Below are positions 1 to 12,251 of a stretch of DNA of 12,251 nucleotides, piece by piece (position 1 is the stretch's first letter; each line of letters begins with the position of its first letter). The translations under genes were made by a program, and so were the position numbers. The notes beneath the pieces were generated by a model, which ran no database searches, was not told the DNA's origin, and saw only the letters and a program-made list of their open reading frames with translations. The DNA comes from Fibrobacteria bacterium (lineage in GTDB: Bacteria; Fibrobacterota; Fibrobacteria; UBA11236), in contig JAYTHY010000065.1 of assembly GCA_043732185.1 (NCBI GenBank), positions 1-12,251 on the forward strand, written 5' to 3'.

Positions 1-117
1 TCACCAAGTGGCCACGACTCATCCAGAACGAATATCAAAAAGGGGAAATCCAATTCGAAATCAGGAGATCATGAGTTTCCGAAAGGCATTGGGTTTAAAT
101 CCAGTATATTTTGACTC

Positions 118-1254
118 ATGCTTCAATCTATATCCGAGCAAACACCAGACACGCTCAAGTACACGGATTCGCTGCTCGTCAAAGCTTTTACCCAAGCGGA
201 CTATGCGGTAAATTTGACCGACAAGACCGGATTGCTCGTCAAGGTGAACCAGGCCTATTTGGATCTCTACAAATTTCTTTCCGATGCGGAACTTTTGGGA
301 AAATCCCAACGCATTATCCGTTCGCCGCATACTCCAAATGCCGTTTACAACGAGATGTGGAAAACTATTTCGGCCGGAGAAATTTGGCGCGGAAATCTCA
401 CTAACATTGCCAAGGATGGAACAGAAGTTTTTGTTCATCTGACGATTACGCCTATTAAGGAAGCGGGAAACATTGTCGGATACATGGGTTTTTCGCTGGA
501 TCGGGCGCAGCAGGTGTTGCTGGAAAAGCAGCTCTTTCATGCCAATAAATTGGTGATTTTGGGGACCATGGGCGCAGGACTAGCCCATGAATTAAACAAC
601 CCTCTGGCCAGCATCCTGCTTGATGCCGAATATCTCCAGGAAATTTGCCTAGCCCCTGAAAAGCCCATAGATTGGGCCACGGCGTTGTCTGCATCCAACT
701 CATTGATTAAAGGGGTTGAGCGCATCAAGAAGGTTTTGGAACACCTGCTTTCCTATTCCCGCAAGGAATCGCATCAGAAGTACACGACCATGACGGTGTT
801 GAAACTCGTACAAGAAAGCTTTCTATTCATTGAAAGGCAGTTCAGCAGTCGTGGTATATCTATCGAAGTCGGCATTGACGATGACATATGCATTGCCGGA
901 AATCAAACTGAATTGGAATCCGTCATCCACAACCTCTTGCACAATTCCTGCGATGCCTTCGAAGGACGACCTGGAAAAAAAACCGTTTCCATTACTGCCA
1001 GCAAGGGTTCGGATGGATTCGTATTGATCGAGTACTTGGACAATGCCGGTGGCATTCCCGAAAAAAACCTACACAAGATCTTTGAGCCCTTCTTTACCAC
1101 CAAAAACGAACAAGAGGGAACCGGCTTGGGATTGGCTATCAGCAAGAAAATCGTGACCGAACATGGCGGAACAATCGTTTGCGAGTCGCAAAAGGACACC
1201 ACTTTGTTTCAAATTCAGCTCCCAATTGTATCAAATGGCCTTAGCCAGGAGTAA
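118..1254 (+). CDS. Cytoplasmic PAS-domain sensor histidine kinase (PAS-HisKA-HATPase_c, NtrB-like)
   Basis: 378 aa ORF. N-terminal PAS/PAC (LTDKTG..VNQAY..MWKTI..IWRGNLTN). H-box GLAHELNNPL, N-box IHNLLHNSCDA, G1 DNAGGI, F-box IFEPFFTTK, G2 GTGLGLAIS. No transmembrane segment seen. In-frame TGA at 112-114 limits the start; no clear SD. Confidence 0.95.
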   Translation: MLQSISEQTPDTLKYTDSLLVKAFTQADYAVNLTDKTGLLVKVNQAYLDLYKFLSDAELLGKSQRIIRSPHTPNAVYNEMWKTISAGEIWRGNLTNIAKDGTEVFVHLTITPIKEAGNIVGYMGFSLDRAQQVLLEKQLFHANKLVILGTMGAGLAHELNNPLASILLDAEYLQEICLAPEKPIDWATALSASNSLIKGVERIKKVLEHLLSYSRKESHQKYTTMTVLKLVQESFLFIERQFSSRGISIEVGIDDDICIAGNQTELESVIHNLLHNSCDAFEGRPGKKTVSITASKGSDGFVLIEYLDNAGGIPEKNLHKIFEPFFTTKNEQEGTGLGLAISKKIVTEHGGTIVCESQKDTTLFQIQLPIVSNGLSQE

Positions 1255-1267
1255 TCGATTCCTATTT

Positions 1268-1299
1268 TGCCAATTTAGCAAATATTTGTCATAATGGCA
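1268..1299. promoter_or_regulatory. Two tandem imperfect palindromes TGYCA-N3-TRGCA (candidate enhancer/activator binding sites)
   Basis: TGCCA-ATT-TAGCA at 1268-1280 and TGTCA-TAA-TGGCA at 1287-1299, 19-bp period, about 110-140 bp upstream of the -24/-12 element. Confidence 0.5.
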
Positions 1300-1406
1300 C
1301 ATAACAACCGTTTAATCAAGCTGTGTCCCCGCCAAACGAACGGTCCAGAGTGGGCTAAATGACAGTTTTTGAGTTTCTGGTAGAAAATAAGGCAGCCTGA
1401 AAAATA

Positions 1407-1422
1407 CGGTGTAATCCTTGCT
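1407..1422 (+). promoter_or_regulatory. Candidate sigma54 (-24/-12) promoter
   Basis: CGGTGTAATCCTTGCT: GG at 1408-1409, exactly 10 nt, then GC at 1420-1421 within TTGCT. About 30 nt before the ATG at 1454. Confidence 0.55.
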
Positions 1423-1453
1423 CTAATATGCACTAACTCAACCGGAAACGAAT

Positions 1454-2236
1454 ATGATGAACCTCAAGCAGTGGCTTTTTGCGGATACGACGATTGGCGA
1501 GTTATTGGCGATTCGACCGCAGGCCATTTCCGTGCTTGAAAAATTCGGGATTGACCCGTTTAAATTGCCAATGACAAGACTTGGAGAAACATGCCAGGAA
1601 AAGGGCATAGCCTGGGAGACTCTTTTACTGGAAACCGGCAAATTAGAAGTGCCTCGAAAAGATTCTGATTGGCAGCAATTGCCACTTTTTATGCTACTCG
1701 ATTTTCTTATCCAGGAACACAGAGAAATAGTCTCCGAATTCTTCCCCGCTATCCGGAATGCCATAATTTCTGAAGAAAAAGATCCCGGGAATTTGGAAGC
1801 CAATTCTGCCCTGGTCCGGGAATGGCCAGGTTTTATGGCCAATTTGACGGAGCATATTAAATCGGAAGATACATTCCTGTTTCCAAAAATTCTCCGCTAT
1901 GACTATTGCGCTAGGCACGATACTGTAGATCCGGATTTTTCCAATGGATCCGTGAAAGTCTTCGCGGCTTTGCACCTTTTAATGCATGAGCAACGCCAAA
2001 CGAGCGCTGTTACGAAATTTCTCGATGCAATGGCCTTTTCCCCCGCTCCAGATGGGGAAAATGATATGAGGCGAAAACATCTTTTACAAATGATGGCTAG
2101 ATTTCAAAAATCATTGATTGACCACTCCCGATTGGAGGTGGAGGTTTTATTCCCTTTGGCGACAGCCCTTGAAAAGAGACTGTATGATCGACTCATTTCC
2201 GGCCATAAAGGCAATACTAAAGGAGAAATGGTATGA
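1454..2236 (+). CDS. Divergent Ric/YtfE/ScdA-like protein (ScdA_N/DUF542-like N-terminal domain plus hemerythrin-like HHE domain)
   Basis: 260 aa. N-terminus TTIGELL...AISVLEKFGID...LGETCQEKGI resembles ScdA_N. Linker DW..LPL..LLDFLI..H. Two H-x3-E-x3-LFP motifs (EHIKSEDTFLFP, DHSRLEVEVLFP). Lacks the DFCCGG motif. Confidence 0.75.
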   Translation: MMNLKQWLFADTTIGELLAIRPQAISVLEKFGIDPFKLPMTRLGETCQEKGIAWETLLLETGKLEVPRKDSDWQQLPLFMLLDFLIQEHREIVSEFFPAIRNAIISEEKDPGNLEANSALVREWPGFMANLTEHIKSEDTFLFPKILRYDYCARHDTVDPDFSNGSVKVFAALHLLMHEQRQTSAVTKFLDAMAFSPAPDGENDMRRKHLLQMMARFQKSLIDHSRLEVEVLFPLATALEKRLYDRLISGHKGNTKGEMV

Positions 2237-2262
2237 TCTGGATTCCTTAACCGGGAATTTGC

Positions 2263-3447
2263 ATGGCAAAGATTAATTCAGGAACCCTTGCTACCTTGTC
2301 TGCCAATATGACAAACATGGAAAATAGCGCCGAACTATTAAATAGCCGCCCCCTGATTGAGGACGCGTTCTCACAGTCTGATTATGCCATCAATATCACC
2401 GACACCAAAGGGATCATTGTTGAAGTAAACGACGCCTATCTCCGCTTGTATAAGTTCCATTCCAAAACCGAAATTTTGGGTCAGAATCAACGAATCATTC
2501 GCTCTGCGCTAACTCGTGCCTCGGTTTATAAAAACATGTGGGAGACTATTCTTACCGGCCAGGTATGGCGAGGGGAACTGACTAATAAAGCTATCGATGG
2601 CTCGGAAGTATTCATTCATTTGACGATCAGTCCGATTCAAAGAAATGGCGAAACGGTAGGCTATATGGGTTTTTCCATCGACCGGGCCCAGCAAGTCCTC
2701 ATCGAACGGCAGTTATTCCATGCCAATAAACTAGTTGTACTGGGTACACTGGGAGCAGGACTGGCCCACGAATTGAATAACCCATTAGCCAGTATCCTAC
2801 TTGATGCAGAATTTTTGCGTGATTTTATTTCGGATCCAAATCGCACGACCGATCCTGCCATACCCTTATCGGCTGCCGATTCCGTTATTCGCGGCGCAGA
2901 AAGAATGCGACGTGTTCTCGAACATCTGCTTTTTTATTCCAAAAAGGATACAGGAACGGCCACATCGACCATATCACTCAGCCAGCTTTTGGAGGACAGT
3001 CTGCTTTTTATTGAAAGGCAGCTCACATCGCGAAGCATTGATATCAGAATCGAAATTGATGCCGATTATTTTATCAATGGAAACCGGACCCAATTGGAAT
3101 CGGTCATCCACAATTTGTTGGGCAATTCTCGAGACGCGTTCAATCAAGCCACCACTAAGGACAAATACATTTCCATTCGATCCAAGTTTCTCGAACAAGA
3201 AAAATTGGTGCAACTTGAATATTTGGATAATGCGGGTGGCATTACTAAAAATGTCCTTGAACATATTTTCGAACCGTTTTTCACAACTAAAGGAGCGGAT
3301 GGCACAGGGCTAGGTCTGGCAATTAGCAAACAAATTTTGACTGAACATGGTGGAAGCATCGACTGTGAATCCAAGCAGGGCAATACACTTTTTACAATGC
3401 TGCTCCCAGCCACTCGGCTTGTCAAACCATACGCCCCGAAATCCTGA
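2263..3447 (+). CDS. Cytoplasmic PAS-domain sensor histidine kinase, paralog of 118-1254
   Basis: 394 aa; alternative in-frame ATGs at 2308 and 2317. PAS (ITDTKG..VNDAY..MWETI..VWRGELTN), H-box GLAHELNNPL, N-box IHNLLGNSRDA, DNAGGI, IFEPFFTTK, GTGLGLAIS. Confidence 0.95.
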   Translation: MAKINSGTLATLSANMTNMENSAELLNSRPLIEDAFSQSDYAINITDTKGIIVEVNDAYLRLYKFHSKTEILGQNQRIIRSALTRASVYKNMWETILTGQVWRGELTNKAIDGSEVFIHLTISPIQRNGETVGYMGFSIDRAQQVLIERQLFHANKLVVLGTLGAGLAHELNNPLASILLDAEFLRDFISDPNRTTDPAIPLSAADSVIRGAERMRRVLEHLLFYSKKDTGTATSTISLSQLLEDSLLFIERQLTSRSIDIRIEIDADYFINGNRTQLESVIHNLLGNSRDAFNQATTKDKYISIRSKFLEQEKLVQLEYLDNAGGITKNVLEHIFEPFFTTKGADGTGLGLAISKQILTEHGGSIDCESKQGNTLFTMLLPATRLVKPYAPKS

Positions 3448-3457
3448 ATCTAAAATT

Positions 3458-4819
3458 ATGGAAATAACATTTTTAGGTGGCACAGGAACCGTTACCGGCT
3501 CCAAATACCAAGTCCAGTATGGCACGCGAAAAGTTCTCGTGGACTGCGGTCTGTTTCAAGGCTTGAAACAATTGAGACTGAAAAACTGGACCCCATTCCC
3601 GGTTTCCGTTCCAGAAATAGAAGCCATTTTCCTAACCCATGCCCATTTGGACCATAGTGGATACATACCGAGACTGGTTCAACAAGGTTTTACCGGAACC
3701 ATTTATTGTACTCCCGCCACCCGGGACCTTTGCCGCATACTGCTTTTGGACAGCGCCAAAATCATGGAGGAAGAAGCCGAGTTTGCCCGTCGGCATAAAT
3801 TCTCCAAACACAAACATCCTGTTCCACTCTATACAACCGAAGATGCTGAAAAGGCCATGCATCAATTCAAAACCATCGCATGGAATAAGCCTATGCAATG
3901 GAAGGATGGGTTAGAGATTGAATTCTTTCGCGCAGGACATATTCTAGGCGCCTCCATGATCCGTTTACGTCATGCGGGAACGTCGCTGACATTTTCCGGA
4001 GACCTCGGCAGGCAGTCGGATCCCATGTTCCCGCCACCCGATTCCCTGCCGGATACAGATTATCTGGTGGTGGAGTCTACCTACGGCGATCGAATACACG
4101 GAAATGTGGATCCTGGCTTCCAATTGCAATCCCTTATTTCCAAGGCCTTTAAAAATCATAGCGTCGTCTTGATTCCCGCTTTTGCAGTTGGCCGCACGCA
4201 ATCGCTCCTCTTGAAACTTTGGGAGATAAGGAAGTCCGGAAACTTGCCGGCCATTCCCATTTATGTCGATAGTCCCATGGCGATGAATGTGACGCGACTT
4301 TATTCCGAATACCCTGAAGCCCATTCCATGGGAGAGGCACATGCAGCAGAAGTCTTTGGCATGGCCAATTATGTCAATGACGCCGATGAATCCCGTCTGC
4401 TCTCCAATCGTAAAGGCCCCATGGTGATTATTTCTGCGAGTGGAATGGCAACGGGAGGCCGTGTACTGCACCACCTTAAGGCATTTGCTCCCGATCCAAA
4501 AAACCTTATCCTGTTGTCCGGTTTTCAGGCAGTAGGCACTAGGGGTGCAGCGCTGTTGGCAGGTGCGGATAGAATAAAAATCCAAGGTGAATATGTGGAA
4601 GTACGGGCGGAAGTGGCTTCGCTTGGGAACTTTTCGGCCCATGCGGATTCAAGTGAAATCCTGCAATGGCTGAGTACAGCCGCCAAGCCACCAAAGCAGG
4701 TATTCATAACGCATGGTGAGCCAGCAGCGGCTGAGGGGTTACGAAAGTCCATTGCTGAAACGCTGGGATGGAATGGCATAGTTCCGGAATATCGGGATGT
4801 ATACGCCTTGCCAGATTGA
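3458..4819 (+). CDS. MBL-fold beta-CASP nuclease (bacterial CPSF73/YSH1-like RNA-processing family)
   Basis: Start revised to ATG 3458 (MEITFLGGTGTVTGSKY), 10 nt after the kinase stop. Motifs VDCG, THAHLDH, AGHILG, FSGDLG, ESTYG, PAFAVGR, SASGM, FSAHAD and ITHGE are all present. Confidence 0.93.
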   Translation: MEITFLGGTGTVTGSKYQVQYGTRKVLVDCGLFQGLKQLRLKNWTPFPVSVPEIEAIFLTHAHLDHSGYIPRLVQQGFTGTIYCTPATRDLCRILLLDSAKIMEEEAEFARRHKFSKHKHPVPLYTTEDAEKAMHQFKTIAWNKPMQWKDGLEIEFFRAGHILGASMIRLRHAGTSLTFSGDLGRQSDPMFPPPDSLPDTDYLVVESTYGDRIHGNVDPGFQLQSLISKAFKNHSVVLIPAFAVGRTQSLLLKLWEIRKSGNLPAIPIYVDSPMAMNVTRLYSEYPEAHSMGEAHAAEVFGMANYVNDADESRLLSNRKGPMVIISASGMATGGRVLHHLKAFAPDPKNLILLSGFQAVGTRGAALLAGADRIKIQGEYVEVRAEVASLGNFSAHADSSEILQWLSTAAKPPKQVFITHGEPAAAEGLRKSIAETLGWNGIVPEYRDVYALPD

Positions 4820-4845
4820 GCTTACTAAATTTTAGCCTCTATGTG

Positions 4846-7566
4846 CTACCGGATTCTTAGCTGCTTTCCATTAATAGGCCTGAGTAACTTAAGACATTCC
4901 AATACCAGGAGTGGTATTGAAGCAAGCCCGAAAAGGACAAACCATTGAACTCCAGATAAGGGCATGATTTTCAGCAGTCGGCTCAAGGTTTCGTTCTGAT
5001 GGAGGAAAACTTGCAACAGTATGGAAAAGCCAACTACCAGCAGAAGCAGCGGATTACCGCGAGGATCCAAGGTAAGGAAAAGCCTGGTTTCACTTCTAGC
5101 TCCTAACGAGCGTAGCAACTCAGCCAAAACCAAAGCCGTGAACGCCAAAGCCCGCGCCACTTCCAAGCCATACGTTTTTAGGCCCCAAACAAAGGCGGCC
5201 AGAGACACCCCAGCCGTCAAGAATCCAGTTAATAAAAGCGAAAATAAAAAGTTTCGATCGGATAGAATTTCAGATTGAGTCCTGGGTTTCTTTTTCATGA
5301 CATCCGGATCGATTCTTTCCGAAGCTAAGCATAAAGCCGGCAGACCATCCGTAACCAAATTGATCCAGAGCAGGTGAATTGGCAGTAGGGGAAGCGGCAG
5401 TCCAATAATTATCGAAGCCGTCATGAATAAAAGTTCGCCCGCATTACCCGCCAAAAGAAATTGGAGCGTGTTTCGAATGTTTTGATAAATACCCCGCCCT
5501 TCTTCAACGGCTGCCACTATAGTCGCAAAATTGTCATCGGCAATAATCATATCGGAAGCTTGCTTGGTTACCTCAGTACCACTGCGCCCCATGGCAATGC
5601 CGATATGGGCGCCTTTGAGCGCCGGAGCATCGTTCACGCCGTCACCGGTCATGGCAACAATAGCCCCTAGGCCTTTCCAAGCATTTATAACGCGAAGCTT
5701 GTGCGCGGCCGTTACCCGGGCAAAAACAGAAACTTTTACCACACGTTCCTGAAGCGAAGCATCATCCATACCATCCATTTGCGAACCGGTTAAAGTCTCA
5801 TCATCCTTTTTCGCGATACCCAGTTCTTTCGCTATAGCCAAGGCGGTTGAAGGATGATCTCCGGTAATCATCACTACCCGTATTCCCGCTTCAAGGCATG
5901 TAGTCACGGCCTTTTTCGCCTCCGGCCTGGGCGGATCATACATACCAGTCAAGCCCAAGAAAACCAGATCCTTCTCGACATCTTCTACTTTAGGCGTTTG
6001 TCCTTTTGGTAATGCATCATCGCGATAGGCTGTGCCAAGCACCCGAAGCCCTCTTCCAGCCATTTCCAGATTCGCCTTTAAGATGGAATCTCTTTCCGCT
6101 TTTTCCAAAACGCGTATACCGTTTTTAGAATGAACCCGCGTGCACAAATCGAGCAATACATCAGGCGCGCCATTGACGTGGATGCGAGCGGAATCATTTT
6201 TCCATTTCTGAATGGCGCTGGCTCTTTTCCGATCCGAGTCAAACGGAAAGGAAAAAATCATTTCAGATTTCGATTGATCCTGAGGACTCAACCCAAGCTT
6301 TCTCCCAGCGGCAATCAGGGCTCCTTCGGTAGGATCACCGGCAACCTTCCACTGGCCATTCTCCGCATAGAGGCTGGCCGTAGTGGTTGCTGCTTGCGCC
6401 AATGCCAAATTGCGTAAAAGTTCGGTATGTTCCGGCAGTGTGGGCTTTTCTTTATTCAGCACGGTACCCACCGGATCCAAACCACCGCCTCCTACGATAA
6501 AAGTTTCGCCATCAACATAAAATTCCTTTACCGTCATTTCACCAGCCGTTAAAGTACCGGTCTTATCCGTGCAAATGACAGTGGCGGAACCCAACGTTTC
6601 CACGGACGGCAAGCGCCGCACCAAAGCTTTCCGCTTAGCCATGCGCCGCACGCCCAGAGCCAAGGCAACAGTGACTATAGCTGGTAGTCCTTCCGGAGCA
6701 GCTGCGACAGCCAAACTTACCGCCGTCATGAATTGCTGAAACAGGTCTCGACCCCTTAGGAGGCCTATCAAAAAAAGAATCGCCACGATTCCCAGGCATA
6801 CCCAGACCAACGTCTTACTGAGTGCGTTCATACGTTTTTGTAAGGGAGTTTCCGATTCCATTCCAGCCGATTCCAGCAGGCTCGCAATTTTTCCAATTTC
6901 GGTTCCGGAACCCGTACGGACTACAATCGCCTTTCCTGCACCACTGGCGATACTGGTTCCCATGTAAATCATATTATGACGATCTCCCAAGGAAACGTCT
7001 CCTGTAGGTAACGTATCGGATACCTTAAGCACCGACTCTGATTCACCAGTTAATGCGGCTTCCAGGCTTCGCAATCCAAAAACTTGGAAAAGCCGGGCAT
7101 CAGCCGGAACCAAGTCCCCGGCTTCCAGTTCAATCACGTCTCCGCGCACAAGAGCTTTGGCGGGAATAGACCGGACCAGGCCAGACCTTAGCACCTTAGC
7201 CATGGGCGCAGTCATCTTCCGAAGTGCAGCGATGGACTGCTCCGCATTGTATTCCTGGAAAAACCCTATGATTCCGTTGAGAAAAACTATTGTCAAAATG
7301 GCAATTGCATCGATAGCTTCACCCATGACACCGGATACAATTCCGGCTACCAGTAAAACCCATATGACCAAATTGTTGAATTGACCCAGAAATAATTTCC
7401 ATTTCTTGGTGCCGGGTGGCTCAGGCAAGGTGTTCGCGCCTTCAGTTGTAAGCCTGGTTTCCGCTAAAGAGTCCTGTAGACCTTGATCCAAATCCGACTC
7501 GACCTCGAGAACGACCTTTGAAATATCCGAGGTATGCCAGTTATCGGTAGGTATAATCGCTGTCAT
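4846..7566 (-). CDS. Type IIA cation-transporting P-type ATPase (SERCA/PacL-like, probably Ca2+)
   Basis: About 906 aa (ATG 7566; alternative TTG 7575). Motifs LTGES, PEGL, DKTGTLT, DPPR, MITGD, TGDGVNDAPALK, M5 GNAGE and M6 WINLVTDGLPA, plus multiple hydrophobic segments. Confidence 0.96.
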   Translation of the reverse strand: MTAIIPTDNWHTSDISKVVLEVESDLDQGLQDSLAETRLTTEGANTLPEPPGTKKWKLFLGQFNNLVIWVLLVAGIVSGVMGEAIDAIAILTIVFLNGIIGFFQEYNAEQSIAALRKMTAPMAKVLRSGLVRSIPAKALVRGDVIELEAGDLVPADARLFQVFGLRSLEAALTGESESVLKVSDTLPTGDVSLGDRHNMIYMGTSIASGAGKAIVVRTGSGTEIGKIASLLESAGMESETPLQKRMNALSKTLVWVCLGIVAILFLIGLLRGRDLFQQFMTAVSLAVAAAPEGLPAIVTVALALGVRRMAKRKALVRRLPSVETLGSATVICTDKTGTLTAGEMTVKEFYVDGETFIVGGGGLDPVGTVLNKEKPTLPEHTELLRNLALAQAATTTASLYAENGQWKVAGDPTEGALIAAGRKLGLSPQDQSKSEMIFSFPFDSDRKRASAIQKWKNDSARIHVNGAPDVLLDLCTRVHSKNGIRVLEKAERDSILKANLEMAGRGLRVLGTAYRDDALPKGQTPKVEDVEKDLVFLGLTGMYDPPRPEAKKAVTTCLEAGIRVVMITGDHPSTALAIAKELGIAKKDDETLTGSQMDGMDDASLQERVVKVSVFARVTAAHKLRVINAWKGLGAIVAMTGDGVNDAPALKGAHIGIAMGRSGTEVTKQASDMIIADDNFATIVAAVEEGRGIYQNIRNTLQFLLAGNAGELLFMTASIIIGLPLPLLPIHLLWINLVTDGLPALCLASERIDPDVMKKKPRTQSEILSDRNFLFSLLLTGFLTAGVSLAAFVWGLKTYGLEVARALAFTALVLAELLRSLGARSETRLFLTLDPRGNPLLLLVVGFSILLQVFLHQNETLSRLLKIMPLSGVQWFVLFGLASIPLLVLECLKLLRPINGKQLRIR

Positions 7567-7713
7567 TTTTTCCAATACTTTCTAAAACTAGTACTAGACC
7601 ATAAATCTAAAAGTCTCATGGAAGAAAAAGTCGCACATGCTAATGAAATAAACGATAATTTTGAAGACGAAACCAGTCGAATAAATAATCAACAGGAAAT
7701 TACCAGAGGACGT

Positions 7714-9561
7714 ATGCAGCTGAAATCACATTTCACTGAACAAGAGTGGAAGCAATGGGTAACGCCCGGATGCAGAGTATTCGTAGGATCTGGCGCGGCT
7801 TGTCCCACCGGACTCATGAAAAACTTTTTGGAATATGCGCATCATTTTATCGATATCGAACTGGTGCATATATTGACTCTAGGTGGATCTCCCTGGATAA
7901 CGGAAGAGCATTGTAAAAACTTCAAAGTCAATTCCCTATTCTTAGGCGAACAAAGCCGAAAAATGGTGGCCAAGGGATTGTCTGATTACACGCCTTGCTT
8001 TTTGTCTGAAATACCAAGACTTTTTCTCGATCATACCTTGCCTATTGACGTGGCCATTATTTCAGTGTGTCCACCCGACATTCATGGCTATTGCTCCTTA
8101 GGCGTATCGGTTGATGTGGTATCTGCAGCTACGCGATCGGCAAAATACGTAATTGCCCAGGTTAACCCAAAAATGCCAAGGACCATGGGAAGAAGTTTTA
8201 TCCATGTAAGTAAAATTACCGCCATGGTTGAGATAGCAGAACCACTTCCCGAACTCCCGCGCCCTGTCCTCGATGCAGTTACCATGAAAATTGGGAAGTT
8301 CGTTTCGCTCTTGATAGAAGACGGCAGTACCCTGCAAATGGGCATAGGGAAAATACCGGATGCTGTCTTGACATTTTTACACGACCATAAAGATTTGGGT
8401 ATTCATACGGAAATGTTCAGCGACGGAGTATTGGACCTTTTTGAAAAAGGCGTCATTACCAATTCAAAAAAATCAATCCACCCCAACTTGACCATCACTT
8501 CATTTTGCATGGGATCAAAAAAACTTTACGATTTTGTGGACAACAACCCGCATATAGAATTTCATCCAAGTGAATATGTCAATTCGCCATTAGTCATCGC
8601 CCAGAATAATAAAATGGTGGCGATAAACAGCGCCCTTGAAGTGGATTTGACTGGACAGGTTGTTTCAGATTCGGTGGGTTTTCGATTCTACAGCGGTATA
8701 GGCGGTCAGGTTGATTTTATTAGGGGCGCGGCACAATGTCAAAATGGCACGCCTATCATCGCGCTGGCCTCAACCTGTAAAAACGATAGCATTTCCAAAA
8801 TCGTCCCGTGTTTAACGGAAGGATCTGGAGTGGTGACTTCCCGTGGCGATATCCATTACGTAGTTACGGAATACGGCATCGCCACTTTAAGAGGCAGAAG
8901 CATACGGGAACGAGCCCTGGAAATGATTCAAATCGCCCATCCAAAATTTCGGGAACAGTTGTTAAAACAGGTGCGGGATCAGGCTTGGGTACCCGCGTAC
9001 CAGGAACAAAAATATTCACAAGCACCTGGAATAAGCAAATTTGAAATTCAAAAATTGAAATTAAACGATGGCGTCTATTTGTTACGGGCCCTTGGCCCTT
9101 CAGACGAGAGGCGGCTGCAAGAATTTTTTTACTCCCATAACCAGGATTCGATTTATCAAAGATACCGTTCCATAGTCAATAAAATGCCGCGGGAAACGGC
9201 TTATAAACTCGTTAATGTGGATCAAAATATGGATTTGGCATTATGCATCGTGGAGCGGCAGGGCCCACGTGAAATCATCCATGCCGTAGGCCGCTACTAT
9301 TTGGAGCAAAAGGAAAATCGCGCCGAAGTCGCTTTTATCGTTCGGGAAACCAAACGGAAATTGGGAATGGCCTCAATCATATTGGAACAGCTCATTGCGA
9401 CTGCAAAACAAAGGAATATCCTGCAACTCTTCGCGTTTGTCAGAAATGACAATTATCCCATGATCAAAATATTTACTAAGTTCCAATTCGATAAAAAAGA
9501 AACGGATGATGTGATGGAGAGCTATTTTACTTTGGATTTGACGAAATGTTTGCCGAACTAA
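7714..9561 (+). CDS. Fusion of acetyl-CoA hydrolase/transferase (4-hydroxybutyrate CoA-transferase-like) and C-terminal Pat-type GNAT acyltransferase
   Basis: Probable start ATG 7714 after AGAGGA. Transferase motifs GYCSLGVSVD, DGSTLQMGIGKIPDAV, LGIHTEMFSDG, INSALEVDLTGQV, SGIGGQVDF, VVTEYGIA, IAHPKFRE. Last ~160 aa are GNAT: LRALGPSDERRLQEFF, AVGRY, AEVAFIV, RKLGMA, DNYPM. Confidence 0.92.
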   Translation: MQLKSHFTEQEWKQWVTPGCRVFVGSGAACPTGLMKNFLEYAHHFIDIELVHILTLGGSPWITEEHCKNFKVNSLFLGEQSRKMVAKGLSDYTPCFLSEIPRLFLDHTLPIDVAIISVCPPDIHGYCSLGVSVDVVSAATRSAKYVIAQVNPKMPRTMGRSFIHVSKITAMVEIAEPLPELPRPVLDAVTMKIGKFVSLLIEDGSTLQMGIGKIPDAVLTFLHDHKDLGIHTEMFSDGVLDLFEKGVITNSKKSIHPNLTITSFCMGSKKLYDFVDNNPHIEFHPSEYVNSPLVIAQNNKMVAINSALEVDLTGQVVSDSVGFRFYSGIGGQVDFIRGAAQCQNGTPIIALASTCKNDSISKIVPCLTEGSGVVTSRGDIHYVVTEYGIATLRGRSIRERALEMIQIAHPKFREQLLKQVRDQAWVPAYQEQKYSQAPGISKFEIQKLKLNDGVYLLRALGPSDERRLQEFFYSHNQDSIYQRYRSIVNKMPRETAYKLVNVDQNMDLALCIVERQGPREIIHAVGRYYLEQKENRAEVAFIVRETKRKLGMASIILEQLIATAKQRNILQLFAFVRNDNYPMIKIFTKFQFDKKETDDVMESYFTLDLTKCLPN

Positions 9562-10532
9562 GCAAACGGTTTCCCATAAAAAATCGGCATTTTCGTCTGC
9601 TTGGTCACCCGAATTGTCTTTTACATGATCCTGGAAAAATGCATCCTGAAAGCATTGCTCGCTTGGAAGCCATTTTACGAGGCTTATTGAAACTTGATGC
9701 CCGACTGCCATTGGATATGGAAATTCCCGCGCCGGCGAATTTAATGGACCTCAAAATCGTCCACACAAAAAACTATTTGTTGTATCTAGAGGAAACCTGC
9801 TTAAAATCCGAATCGCATTTTATGTCCAAGGACAATCCCCTCTCCGAATTCAGTTTGGACGCCATTCTCGCCTCTGGTGGCATGTCCCTGACGGCAGGCA
9901 AACATCTTCTACAAGGTGGGAGCTGTTTTTGCTTAACTCGTCCACCCGGGCATCATGCTGGCAAAGAAAATTCTGAAGGATTTTGCTTTATCAATCACGT
10001 GGCTTTAGCCATTGAAAAAATTCGACTCAGCCAGCCCATGGCCCGGTTTCTCATTGTCGATTTCGATGTGCATCATGGCAATGGAATCGACACCATTTAT
10101 AGAGAAGACGACAATGTATTTTACTTCTCCCTGCATGGCTCTCCCGCACATGTCTATCCCGGAACAGGTTGGGAACAGGATACTGGCGGAAAAGAGAATC
10201 CTGGATCTAGACTCAATATCCCACTTGATCTGCATACGTCCGGTAAAGCGTGGATTGAAAAATTCCGCGAGCATCTCTCGATCGCCGCAGAAAAAAGCCA
10301 ACCGGATTTTTTACTCGTCAGCGCCGGTTTTGACGCCCATATTCAAGATCCCTTTGGACTAATGGACTTGCAGGACGAACATTATTCCCAGTGCATTCAA
10401 TTGCTTCTGCAAACCTCACATCAGTACTGCCAGGATCGAATGGGACTTTTTCTGGAAGGCGGCTACTCCATGGATGTGCTATCCCGGGTCGTGCCAAAAG
10501 TTATTGCCCAGTTGGCAATGGCGCTAAACTGA
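9546..10532 (+). CDS. Zn-dependent histone-deacetylase-family (AcuC/HdaH-like) amidohydrolase
   Basis: 328 aa, overlapping the upstream stop by 16 nt. Motifs HPE..RL, RPPGHHA, GFC..N, DFDVHHGNG, SLH, YPGTG, NIPL, SAGFDAH..DP and LEGGY are intact. Confidence 0.95.
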   Translation: MFAELSKRFPIKNRHFRLLGHPNCLLHDPGKMHPESIARLEAILRGLLKLDARLPLDMEIPAPANLMDLKIVHTKNYLLYLEETCLKSESHFMSKDNPLSEFSLDAILASGGMSLTAGKHLLQGGSCFCLTRPPGHHAGKENSEGFCFINHVALAIEKIRLSQPMARFLIVDFDVHHGNGIDTIYREDDNVFYFSLHGSPAHVYPGTGWEQDTGGKENPGSRLNIPLDLHTSGKAWIEKFREHLSIAAEKSQPDFLLVSAGFDAHIQDPFGLMDLQDEHYSQCIQLLLQTSHQYCQDRMGLFLEGGYSMDVLSRVVPKVIAQLAMALN

Positions 10533-10910
10533 ATGGTGGGAACAATCCATAGCATTTCGCACGCCAACCAGCAAGTCAGCAATTTGAAACGGTTTCATGA
10601 GAAAAATGGCGCGGCCTTCCTGAACCTCCTCAATCACCATCGGATGAGCCGAAAAACCGGAAATATAGAGAACTCTGGTTTCCGGTCGCATTAGTCGTAC
10701 ACATTTGGCCAATTCGCATCCGTCCATGAAAGGGTCCATTTGTACGTCAGTTATTAATAAATCAACCACCCCAGAATAATTGTCGAGCAGAATCAATGCT
10801 TCATCACTGTGGCACGCTACAAGCACAGCGTACCCCTCTCGCTTTAAAATGGTTTCCGTAAACCTACGAATGGGTTCGTCATCTTCAACTAAAAGCACAG
10901 CCCCATTCAT
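10524..10910 (-). CDS. Single-domain response regulator (receiver only)
   Basis: 128 aa. VLLVEDD acidic pair, DLLITDVQM phosphoacceptor Asp, YISG Ser, FLMKPF Lys. No output domain. Confidence 0.92.
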   Translation of the reverse strand: MNGAVLLVEDDEPIRRFTETILKREGYAVLVACHSDEALILLDNYSGVVDLLITDVQMDPFMDGCELAKCVRLMRPETRVLYISGFSAHPMVIEEVQEGRAIFLMKPFQIADLLVGVRNAMDCSHHSV

Positions 10911-11026
10911 TTCAACCGCCTTGCTGTATTCATGTATAGCCTGTAACGATTATTAATATACTACCACAAGGCCATCCAATCCAAATGAAATCAACCTAAT
11001 GCCAAATTAAGTTGGCCTTCCAGCGC

Positions 11027-11938
11027 CTAATCCGACTTTTTCTTCCTTACAATTTCCACCGTACATGGAGCGTGACTGGCTAGAGAAGAAGAAACGCTAC
11101 CTAAAAAAAACCTTTCCAATGCGCCCGTGCCATGCGATCCCAAGAACAGGCAATCCGCATGTGTTTCCGCTATTCTTTTCAGTAATACGTGACGAGGATC
11201 TCCATCATATGTTTCAACAACCACTTTTAACCCGATTGCCTTAAACCTCGTAGCCTCAATGGACAATTTATTTTGCATCCAGGAAGCCCATTCGGTTTGA
11301 AATTGGCCTATTCCCAATTCCTCCTGGGCATTCCGCACTTTCTTGAGATCAATGCCCTGGTCAAAAACCGATATCAACCTCATTAGGGTATTTGGAGGCC
11401 AATTTCTGGAGGCCAATTGTGTTAATAGGTAATCCGCATTGGGACTTCCGTCCATGCCAACGATTATTTCCAATGGGCTACCCGCAGCTCTAATCCTTGC
11501 CCTGTTTATCCTAACTGTTGTGTGGGCATGGTTGATGACATTGGTCGAAACACTTCCAAGAAATAGGCGCCGCCAAGCCGTGTGACCGTGGGAAGCCATG
11601 ACAATCAAATCCGGCTTCCACGCTTCCGCCTTGGCGAGAATACCTTGGGCAGGAAAATCCAGAACCACTTCGGACTGCACTTTCCATTCCGGAAAACGGG
11701 GTTCCAAATGATTTCTGCCTCGGCTTGCAATAATTTCGGCATTTTCGCGAGCCTGCTTCTCAAAGGCCAGCATGTCCGCAACAGCCGTCACTCCGGCTTC
11801 ATTCACACTAAAAAATGGCCATGGCGCGGCCACAGTTAGCACAATAACATGGGCTTTATCAGGTAATGCTGCCAAATCCAAGTCCGCGAGTGCTTCATCT
11901 GCATCCGCAGATCCATCATATCCAATTAGTATTTTCAT
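11027..11938 (-). CDS. Tandem-domain universal stress protein
   Basis: 303 aa with two USP domains: ILIGYDGS...DLIVMASHG...LGSVS and IIVGMDGS...LFLGSHG...LGSVS...APCTVEIV. SD AGGAG 7 nt upstream of the ATG. Confidence 0.95.
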   Translation of the reverse strand: MKILIGYDGSADADEALADLDLAALPDKAHVIVLTVAAPWPFFSVNEAGVTAVADMLAFEKQARENAEIIASRGRNHLEPRFPEWKVQSEVVLDFPAQGILAKAEAWKPDLIVMASHGHTAWRRLFLGSVSTNVINHAHTTVRINRARIRAAGSPLEIIVGMDGSPNADYLLTQLASRNWPPNTLMRLISVFDQGIDLKKVRNAQEELGIGQFQTEWASWMQNKLSIEATRFKAIGLKVVVETYDGDPRHVLLKRIAETHADCLFLGSHGTGALERFFLGSVSSSLASHAPCTVEIVRKKKSD

Positions 11939-12035
11939 AAGGCTGCTCCTGTAGGTAATTTCTTTATTCGGTCCGACTTGCCTATCCCTCTTCAGAATTG
12001 GATTCCATTAATCCTTTTCCACGATTAAATATCAA

Positions 12036-12052
12036 AGCGAAACTCATACCAA
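12036..12052 (-). promoter_or_regulatory. Candidate sigma54 (-24/-12) promoter for the USP gene
   Basis: Minus strand TTGGTATGAGTTTCGCT: GG-N10-GC with a TGGYAY-type -24 box and one mismatch at -12 (TCGC), about 100 nt upstream of the ATG. Confidence 0.45.
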
Positions 12053-12251
12053 TAATCAACGCTAATGCCGGGGATAAAACCACGAATAAATCAATTTAGT
12101 TGTAACTTTGTCGCAATATCGGTTTGTGTTTCGCATGGTATTCCTGAAAACCCTCTTTAATGTGGATGAAGGAGTATTCTATTTCTGAGAATAATGACGC
12201 CAGGATACACGACCACGGAAGAGTCGAAAAGATACTTTTTAGGAATCAGAG

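Follow-up and report, generated by a model that had tools for sequence, protein, structure and literature searches.

In a 12,251-nucleotide stretch of DNA from a Fibrobacteria bacterium (GenBank assembly GCA_043732185.1, contig JAYTHY010000065.1, positions 1-12,251; hereafter the window, its genome being labelled G000), a gene that joins a 4-hydroxybutyrate-type coenzyme A (CoA)-transferase to a Pat-like GNAT acetyltransferase overlaps the gene of an HDAC-family zinc deacylase. We propose, at roughly even odds (probability about 0.5), that the fusion protein and the HDAC form a Pat-equivalent reversible acetylation switch for short-chain acyl-CoA metabolism, in which the body of the acetyltransferase is a live CoA-transferase. 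Bacterial enzymatic lysine acetylation is understood mainly via Pat/CobB and AcuA/AcuC; the module described here probably links short-chain fatty-acid metabolism to the reversible acetylation of proteins, and in genomes like G000 it may be the sole enzymatic acetylation system. The proposal rests on the domain content of the two genes, on the conservation of the transferase half, on the recurrence of HDAC genes beside the fusion in other genomes, and on the acetylation genes of the host and its relatives.

A CoA-transferase-GNAT fusion gene overlaps an HDAC gene

The reading frame of the fusion gene is open over positions 7534-9561 of the forward strand. Its start was placed at 7714 (MQLKSHF...), where the N-termini of homologues agree and where a Shine-Dalgarno-like stretch, AGAGGA, precedes the ATG (Table 1). 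Both Pfam domains, the motifs and the fold assign the body of the protein to the acetyl-CoA hydrolase/transferase family, 4-hydroxybutyrate CoA-transferase branch. The sequence GIHTEMFSD is encoded at positions 8398-8424 and SGIGGQVD at positions 8692-8715; the HTEM glutamate and the glycine-rich GGQ loop correspond to the putative catalytic elements, as in AbfT and AarC. Because the score against the NCBIfam equivalog model for butyryl-CoA:acetate CoA-transferase, TIGR03948 (284.4 bits), is far under its cut-off of 674.8, the substrate of the transferase cannot be read from homology. The domains that make up the body of Type I/II Pat (CoA_binding_2, Succ_CoA_lig and ATP-grasp_5) were all absent from the window fusion in the Pfam search.

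The C-terminal portion, searched with Pfam as the translation of 7714-9561, matched GNAT family PF00583 at residues 524-591 (E = 8.6e-5; the score was 23.2 bits and the cut-off 20.7). It carries R548-x-x-G551-x-A553, which fits the R/Q-x-x-G-x-A/G motif that we take to be the GNAT acyl-CoA loop, together with Glu538 and Glu545. Its solved relatives were PatZ (9it0/9isq, 2e-9), 4nxy (2.9e-6), the Sulfolobus Pat (3f8k, 1.6e-3) and the Mycobacterium tuberculosis Pat (4orf, 6e-3), and the NCBIfam model of mycobacterial Pat was matched at 1.6e-12, with a score (46.9 bits) far under the equivalog cut-off of 460. By these best solved relatives and the kept loop residues, the GNAT is predicted to be of the protein-acetylating kind.

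In the HDAC, His136, His137, Asp174, His176, Asp263 and Tyr307 were invariant in a 30-sequence subfamily alignment and were aligned to HDAC6; they correspond to the tandem histidines, the Asp-His-Asp metal ligands and the catalytic tyrosine of HDAC8 and HDAC6. The best PDB matches were the catalytic domains of HDAC6, followed by 5ji5 and 5zmp (1e-64 to 2e-38 overall; 2.8e-41 for 5ji5 and 2e-38 for 5zmp). The latter structure was deposited as a "lysine deacylase", and is probably the cyanobacterial CddA. Structures of acetylpolyamine amidohydrolases (APAH) matched at 6e-28, over residues 89-283 only. The 16-nucleotide overlap likely couples the translation of the fusion to that of the HDAC; a promoter and terminator scan of the window gave counts no higher than in shuffled sequence. 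A first-pass annotation, made from the letters of the window, had called a CoA-transferase with a retained LGIHTEM glutamate, a Pat-type GNAT and an intact HDAC gene overlapping the fusion by 16 nucleotides. The domain calls agree with the Pfam and PDB matches, the glutamate is Glu233, and the overlap and the integrity of the HDAC gene are borne out by the sequence and by the kept active-site residues.

The transferase half of the fusion is conserved and looks catalytically competent

The 120 best database relatives of the fusion, which share 55-98% identity with the window protein and are spread over several phyla, were all 605-660 amino acids long and contained both transferase domains; a precomputed GNAT family assignment was present in all but one. 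They are named in the databases only as "GNAT family N-acetyltransferase" or "acyl-CoA hydrolase/RimJ...". When the resulting 121 sequences were aligned, Glu233 and the GIGGQ loop were invariant (121/121). Within the transferase, mean pairwise identity was 61.8% for the N-terminal and 74.5% for the C-terminal half; the GNAT, with 53.8%, and the linker, with 41%, had lower values. The transferase half is thus under strong purifying selection and more constrained than the GNAT. In the latter, residue 548 was Arg in 76 sequences and Gln in 41, Glu538 was kept in 113, Gly551 in all 121, and residue 553 was Ala in 106 and Gly in 13. An AlphaFold2 model built on the 121 sequences (mean predicted local distance difference test (pLDDT), 87.7; predicted template modelling score (pTM), 0.85) replaced an earlier one built on 20 sequences (pLDDT 71.7), in which residues 307-442 were unreliable. 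The top Foldseek match of the predicted fold was 2oas (E = 1e-48, target-normalised template modelling (TM) score 0.95, root-mean-square deviation 2.1 over 426 columns), and the best solved match in a PDB sequence search was the Thermus CoA-transferase TtCoAT (9vag; E = 5.3e-144, residues 16-427). Considering the invariant catalytic residues and the highest conservation in the protein, we argue that the transferase half works, or at least forms covalent intermediates; to judge from its sequence, it still looks catalytically competent.

The fusion occupies at least 588 places in a collection with one genome per species, in line with the expectation of the first-pass annotation that the architecture exists in other genomes. 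Within the window's phylum, a match at E <= 1e-100 was found in 55 of 296 genomes and in 30 of 70 genera. Within the window's genus, only 1 of the 14 other genomes has the fusion; the counts for genomes of the phylum and of the genus make the distribution patchy. Carriers include entire clades of Colwellia, Alteromonas, Rheinheimera and Idiomarina, with cultured, tractable members among them. When four carrier genomes (G000, G002, G021 and G024) were searched with the fusion as query, no second member of its transferase family was found in any of them.

Some variants of the architecture were also seen. In a metagenomic protein of 1101 amino acids (P0243), the CoA-transferase-GNAT unit is combined with an NTE-type P-loop domain and a patatin-like phospholipase. 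A 1052-amino acid protein (L209:808-3966, genome G284) has a C-terminal CoA-transferase (residues 624-1044), no GNAT and about 600 N-terminal residues with no Pfam match. At L073:5737-8424, a CoA-transferase gene without GNAT ends within its C-terminal domain (profile positions 1-83 of 154) and is followed by a phosphofructokinase gene; it is a decayed copy or an assembly join.

HDAC genes adjoin the fusion in other genomes

Linkage was surveyed at the best 80 of the at least 588 fusion loci, four of which end too early to be judged. An HDAC gene adjoined the fusion in 65 of the 76 assessable loci, so the arrangement in the window is not due to chance. In 63 of the 65 it lay directly downstream on the same strand, either overlapping the fusion or up to about 230 nucleotides away; one further HDAC gene was upstream on the same strand and one was divergent. 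Clustering of the neighbours (280 open reading frames from 77 loci) gave an HDAC cluster of 60 members, while every other cluster had at most 10; the remaining neighbours encode efflux pumps, sulfotransferases, MiaE, MurB and similar proteins. As a control, 80 metagenome loci were collected with generic HDAC motifs, which retrieved relatives 31-38% identical and were used for this control only. The fusion was found at none of the 80, of which 40 had at least 1.9 kb of upstream sequence.

The linked HDACs are of several kinds. In a tree of 144 rows, the linked genes fell into two supported clades that are set apart by unlinked HDACs. Clade A contains the window HDAC and those of Planctomycetota, Verrucomicrobiota and Geobacter relatives; clade B contains 5ji5-like gammaproteobacterial HDACs, one of which matched 5ji5 at 1.1e-91. 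In two genomes of the window's phylum (G110 and G102), the fusion is overlapped by a class-I/HDAC8-like HDAC. Moreover, all three activities occur in single chains: P0290 (955 amino acids) and L208:497-3502 of genome G100 (1001 amino acids) are CoA-transferase-GNAT-HDAC proteins whose HDAC parts represent two further kinds. No other such chain was found among proteins of 1078-3075 amino acids, the length to which the protein search was limited. From the trees and alignments, the linked HDACs come from at least four unrelated lineages. A zinc deacylase was thus recruited at least four times, which is hard to explain without a function shared with the fusion.

The adjacency in 65 of 76 loci, the four or more HDAC lineages and the single-chain proteins together support a writer-eraser coupling well. 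This pairing had been postulated in the first-pass annotation, which called for a neighbourhood survey and held that linkage lacking conservation among homologues would speak against it; the survey found the linkage conserved. The single-chain proteins also bear on what the transferase does. In both, the catalytic glutamate is replaced (by Gly in P0290 and by Leu in the G100 protein) and the GGQ loop is lost, while the GNAT and HDAC residues are kept. Their transferase half can therefore be only a scaffold or a ligand sensor, and a supply of acyl-CoA cannot be the general reason for the association.

Two loci, L012 (a Urechidicola metagenome-assembled genome) and L077 (an Acidimicrobiia metagenome-assembled genome), have a fusion and an HDAC that nest within Kangiellaceae/Colwelliaceae in both trees. 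This placement suggests either that the contig was binned wrongly or that both genes of the module were recently transferred together.

Acyl-CoA enzymes beside the fusion and the acetylation genes of its hosts

In the 40-47% clade, the main clade of the fusion in the window's phylum, a gene similar to NDP-forming acyl-CoA synthetases lies directly upstream of the fusion on the same strand in 26 of 27 loci. Its product, of about 700 amino acids, contains CoA_binding_2, Succ_CoA_lig, Ligase_CoA_2 and ATP-grasp_5 domains and is thus the same kind of body as is fused to the GNAT in canonical Pat. It keeps the motif SHTGSLAG, which we take to be the phosphohistidine site of ADP-forming acetyl-CoA synthetases. 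In G110 and G102, the synthetase-like gene, the fusion and the HDAC stand in a row in this order. An AMP-binding ligase gene was found within two genes of the fusion at L013, L053 and L068 (3 of 77 loci). These synthetase-like and ligase neighbours tie the fusion family to enzymes that make or use acyl-CoA.

The genome of the window, with a completeness of 100%, contains one HDAC gene, which is the one described here, and one Acs above the curated cut-off. The Acs ends in ...PKTRSGKIMRR, and its RSGKIMR matches the acetylation site of AcsA, which is quoted as RSG(K)IMR in the available part of PMC11532494. Canonical Pat was not found in G000, and SIR2 had no match there or in 26 genomes of its order. 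Among the 15 genomes of the genus that were searched, G000 and G002 carry the fusion, G006, G007 and G012 carry Pat, and no genome has both. In G022, a member of the window's order, an HDAC gene (end at 1106) is followed without a gap by a canonical Pat gene (902 amino acids, start at 1107), the two genes together spanning L098:150-3815. Judging from the distribution in the genus and from this HDAC-Pat pair, the fusion and its HDAC sit where relatives have Pat and an eraser.

Table 1. Positions of the module's features in the window, and loci with a synthetase-like gene upstream of the fusion
Feature	Position	Strand	Evidence
Fusion gene, 615 amino acids: 4-hydroxybutyrate-type CoA-transferase body with C-terminal Pat-like GNAT	7714..9561	+	Pfam, NCBIfam, PDB, AlphaFold2, Foldseek
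CoA-transferase N-terminal domain, residues 14-172	7753..8229	+	AcetylCoA_hydro PF02550, E 1.8e-24, 87.3 bits (cut-off 24)
Codon of Glu233 in GIHTEM, putative catalytic glutamate	8410..8412	+	Translation; alignment to HTEM of solved 4-hydroxybutyrate CoA-transferases
CoA-transferase C-terminal domain, residues 267-419	8512..8970	+	AcetylCoA_hyd_C PF13336, E 7.9e-69, 230.9 bits (cut-off 23.7)
GIGGQ loop (G328-Q332) inside the C-terminal transferase domain	8695..8709	+	Translation; alignment
Inter-domain linker, about residues 426-448	8989..9057	+	41% mean pairwise identity; pLDDT <50 at residues 433-443
Pat-like GNAT, about residues 449-600	9058..9513	+	PF00583/PF13302; Pat NCBIfam at residues 449-592; PDB matches
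Overlap of fusion 3' end and HDAC start, 16 nucleotides	9546..9561	+	ATG at 9546; fusion TAA at 9559-9561
HDAC-family zinc deacylase gene, 328 amino acids, short class-II-like	9546..10532	+	Hist_deacetyl PF00850, E 1.3e-76, 258.3 bits
Upstream acyl-CoA-synthetase-like gene	L084, L085, L180, L182-L204; L205:7169-9283, L206:5928-8042

Proposed role of the module and alternative explanations

In our proposal, the fusion would be the writer and would take the place held by Pat/PatZ in enterobacteria. Its CoA-transferase half would exchange CoA between acetyl-CoA and short-chain carboxylates and so report the acyl-CoA/carboxylate state, and the fused GNAT would use acetyl-CoA to acetylate lysines on acyl-CoA-forming enzymes. 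The AMP-forming Acs, at the lysine of RSGKIMR, and the fusion's own chain would be the likeliest targets, and the mark would be stripped by the HDAC-type zinc deacylase translated along with the fusion. What the two enzymes catalyse, which proteins they modify and in which direction they regulate are here inferred from sequence comparison. The pair would represent a new form of reversible lysine acetylation, widespread in hundreds of bacterial species, and it would let one ask directly how acyl-CoA and short-chain-acid status is written onto proteins.

A number of observations weigh against this proposal. Eleven of the 76 assessable loci have unrelated neighbours and no HDAC gene (in Magnetococcales, Myxococcota, Bdellovibrionota, Planctomycetaceae, Armatimonadota and Chloroflexota); in G021, which carries the nearest relative from outside the species (71% identical), the HDAC gene is on another contig. 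The linked loci are phylogenetically clumped, with 57 of the 65 in one gammaproteobacterial clade, and in the 40-47% clade just 2 of 27 loci have an HDAC gene. The module of the window itself has no Acs or ligase gene nearby, and ligase neighbours are confined to the three loci named above. The complementary distribution of Pat and the fusion was seen in five genomes of one genus, which are few and related. As for the GNAT, its match to the Pat model is far below the cut-off, and its nearest relatives among 1.84 billion representatives were small stand-alone GNATs and other fusions; none of the best 150 had a length of about 900 amino acids like type I Pat, and 16 of the 150 were checked for domains. 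The Thermus work considered below adds two further points.

The closest solved homologue, whose reversible acetylation is a precedent for the switch proposed above, is also one for a different role that the first-pass annotation had not considered, in which the GNAT mainly or only acetylates its own transferase, in cis or across a dimer, and the HDAC resets it. In its available part, the Thermus preprint (bioRxiv 10.1101/2025.10.31.685773) describes TtCoAT as the most prominent protein acetylated in dependence on a lysine acetyltransferase; the GNAT TT_C1711 acetylates it mainly at Lys5 and the metal-dependent TT_C0104 deacetylates it, so that the window module could be a fused version of this trio. 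Such a built-in control would suit a transferase without a second family member in the carrier genomes that were checked, and the linkage to a further gene of acyl-CoA metabolism, seen in 26 of 27 loci, is also in its favor. The tail before Trp12 (window positions 7714-7749) is Lys-rich (10.5% against 5.3% overall), with Lys4 in the window protein compared with Lys5 in TtCoAT, and at least one tail Lys is present in 83 of 121 homologues, against about 40% expected. Among sequences that are related to each other, however, this enrichment is weak. The possibility of a conserved site of acetylation in the tail was considered and rejected, since across the 121 sequences Lys is enriched but at no conserved position. 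In Thermus, according to the same part of the preprint, acetylation alone left the activity of TtCoAT unchanged and instead relieved inhibition by an NAD+-bound alanine-dehydrogenase-like partner, and the authors consider this control to be confined to Thermus. The lack of effect of acetylation alone counts against our proposal as well, as does the fact that no gene for such an NAD+-sensing partner stands beside the window's fusion. Finally, the single-chain proteins with a dead transferase keep GNAT and HDAC, and regulating a dead enzyme would be purposeless. We consider self-regulation unlikely, and the Pat-equivalent switch is preferred to it.

Somewhat more doubtful is the idea of the first-pass annotation that the module supplies its own donor, the transferase making from an ambient acid and acetyl-CoA the matching acyl-CoA for its own GNAT, and the HDAC erasing the resulting acyl-lysine; it seems no less doubtful that the marks are propionyl, butyryl, 4-hydroxybutyryl or similar groups that report which acid is present. 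A bacterial enzyme producing its own acyl donor for protein modification would then be at hand. The invariance of Glu233 and GIGGQ and the fact that the transferase half is the most strongly constrained are what a required catalytic step predicts, and the fusion unites both acyl-CoA sites in a domain arrangement that its pTM suggests to be fixed. TtCoAT, as reported in the available part of the preprint, transfers CoA from acetyl-CoA to various short-chain acids. As regards the eraser, the window HDAC matches the deposited lysine deacylase 5zmp, and CddA, a short HDAC from cyanobacteria, takes off propionyl as well as acetyl groups (PMC12224894, available in part). On the other hand, free acyl-CoA diffuses, so that supply does not need a fusion, and in P0290 and the G100 protein the association of GNAT and HDAC survives without the residues that supply would require. 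Least probable of all, and quite improbable in our view, is a small-molecule pathway in which the GNAT acetylates and the HDAC deacetylates an amine metabolite (a polyamine or an amino acid), the transferase recycles acetate or acyl-CoA, and no protein is modified. Many GNATs and some HDAC-family enzymes, such as APAH, do act on small molecules; the window HDAC has its match to APAH structures, and many uncharacterised small GNATs are among the nearest relatives of the GNAT. But if a single operon encoded enzymes that acetylate and deacetylate the same compound, the result would be a futile cycle; the HDAC6, 5ji5 and 5zmp matches far outscore the partial one to APAH, and every solved relative of the GNAT is a protein acetyltransferase. 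In the available part of the survey of Graf et al., bacterial polyamine deacetylases fall only in cluster 4, which would speak against a polyamine substrate should the window HDAC belong to another cluster. The recruitment of four unrelated HDAC lineages is easier to reconcile with a general eraser of acyl-lysine than with an amidase specific for one substrate. The Pat-equivalent switch therefore ranks first, followed in order by self-regulation of the transferase, self-supplied acylation and the small-molecule pathway.

Other genes of the window

The first-pass annotation had put forward the neighbouring universal stress protein (USP), ATPase and RNase as possible substrates of the module. 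These genes lie outside it: the genes of the USP, a response regulator, a P-type ATPase and a beta-CASP RNase are conserved beside the fusion only in the conspecific G002 and not at other loci, for which reason a place in the module, as components or as its substrates, was considered for them and rejected. The beta-CASP/metallo-beta-lactamase ribonuclease gene (3347-4819, forward strand) overlaps, in the gene calls, the end of a histidine-kinase gene (2263-3447) by about 100 nucleotides. The best NCBIfam match of its product was the type VII CRISPR Cas14 model (3e-112, 376 bits, cut-off 800), ranking above aCPSF1. Two similar PAS histidine-kinase genes on the forward strand (118-1254 and 2263-3447) flank a gene at 1454-2236 (forward strand), whose product has a weak RIC/hemerythrin-like (YtfE-type) match with scores far under the curated cut-offs.

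Comparison with known systems

The first-pass annotation knew of no biochemical characterisation of the architecture, and our literature search, which left subscription journals largely outside, likewise found no published description or biochemistry of a CoA-transferase-GNAT fusion; nor did the available part of the Graf et al. survey contain one. The five acetyltransferase types (I-V) of a 2024 review (PMC11254643, available in part) include none with a CoA-transferase body.

The nearest functional counterpart is Pat/PatZ (YfiQ) with CobB in Salmonella enterica and Escherichia coli. Pat/PatZ has a C-terminal GNAT similar in sequence to that of the fusion (E = 2e-9). As in the fusion, the N-terminal body is large and goes back to an enzyme that handles acyl-CoA; in both cases there is an eraser dedicated to the writer, and the genome encodes an Acs with the target lysine. 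The bodies differ, being PF02550 plus PF13336 in the fusion and CoA_binding_2/Succ_CoA_lig/ATP-grasp_5 in Pat; moreover, the fusion body keeps its catalytic residues, whereas the Pat body is described as lacking activity in the available part of the same review. The erasers also differ, CobB being a sirtuin and the window eraser a zinc HDAC. AcuA/AcuC of Bacillus subtilis resembles the window module in that a GNAT and a zinc HDAC are encoded together, their target being the acyl-CoA synthetase AcsA (PMC11532494 and PMC11254643, both available in part). However, AcuA consists of a GNAT domain only and lacks a transferase body, the window module does not have an acs gene next to it, and AcuC is placed in the class-I-like cluster 2c in the available part of Graf et al., whereas the window HDAC is class-II-like. 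The class-I-like type does accompany the fusion in G110 and G102.

The fold and family of the fusion body are those of the 4-hydroxybutyrate CoA-transferases (AbfT of Clostridium aminobutyricum, 3gk7; also 2oas, 3eh7 and 3d3u) and of RipA of Yersinia pestis. The 4-hydroxybutyrate CoA-transferases match the fusion at E values of 1e-111 to 8e-121 and TM scores of 0.90-0.95, with the HTEM glutamate and GGQ aligned. Unlike the fusion, they lack a GNAT and are stand-alone enzymes, with lengths of about 430-450 residues. The window HDAC, for its part, resembles short bacterial class-II-like HDACs (5ji5 from Burkholderia, and 5zmp) in having a single domain of 300-330 residues with the full catalytic set. 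It differs from them in belonging to the separate, well-supported clade A, which consists nearly entirely of fusion-linked genes and of which we know no characterised member.

In Thermus thermophilus, TtCoAT (TT_C1083) is required for growth on butyrate, according to the available part of the preprint (bioRxiv 10.1101/2025.10.31.685773), which contains no fusion. The Thermus trio and the window module comprise the same three activities, namely a transferase, a GNAT and a zinc-type deacetylase. In Thermus these are three separate proteins whose gene numbers suggest that they are unlinked, whereas in the window they are encoded by one fused gene and an overlapping HDAC gene. The module would thus extend the sole experimental case, which its authors deemed restricted to one lineage, to a fused and genetically linked form.

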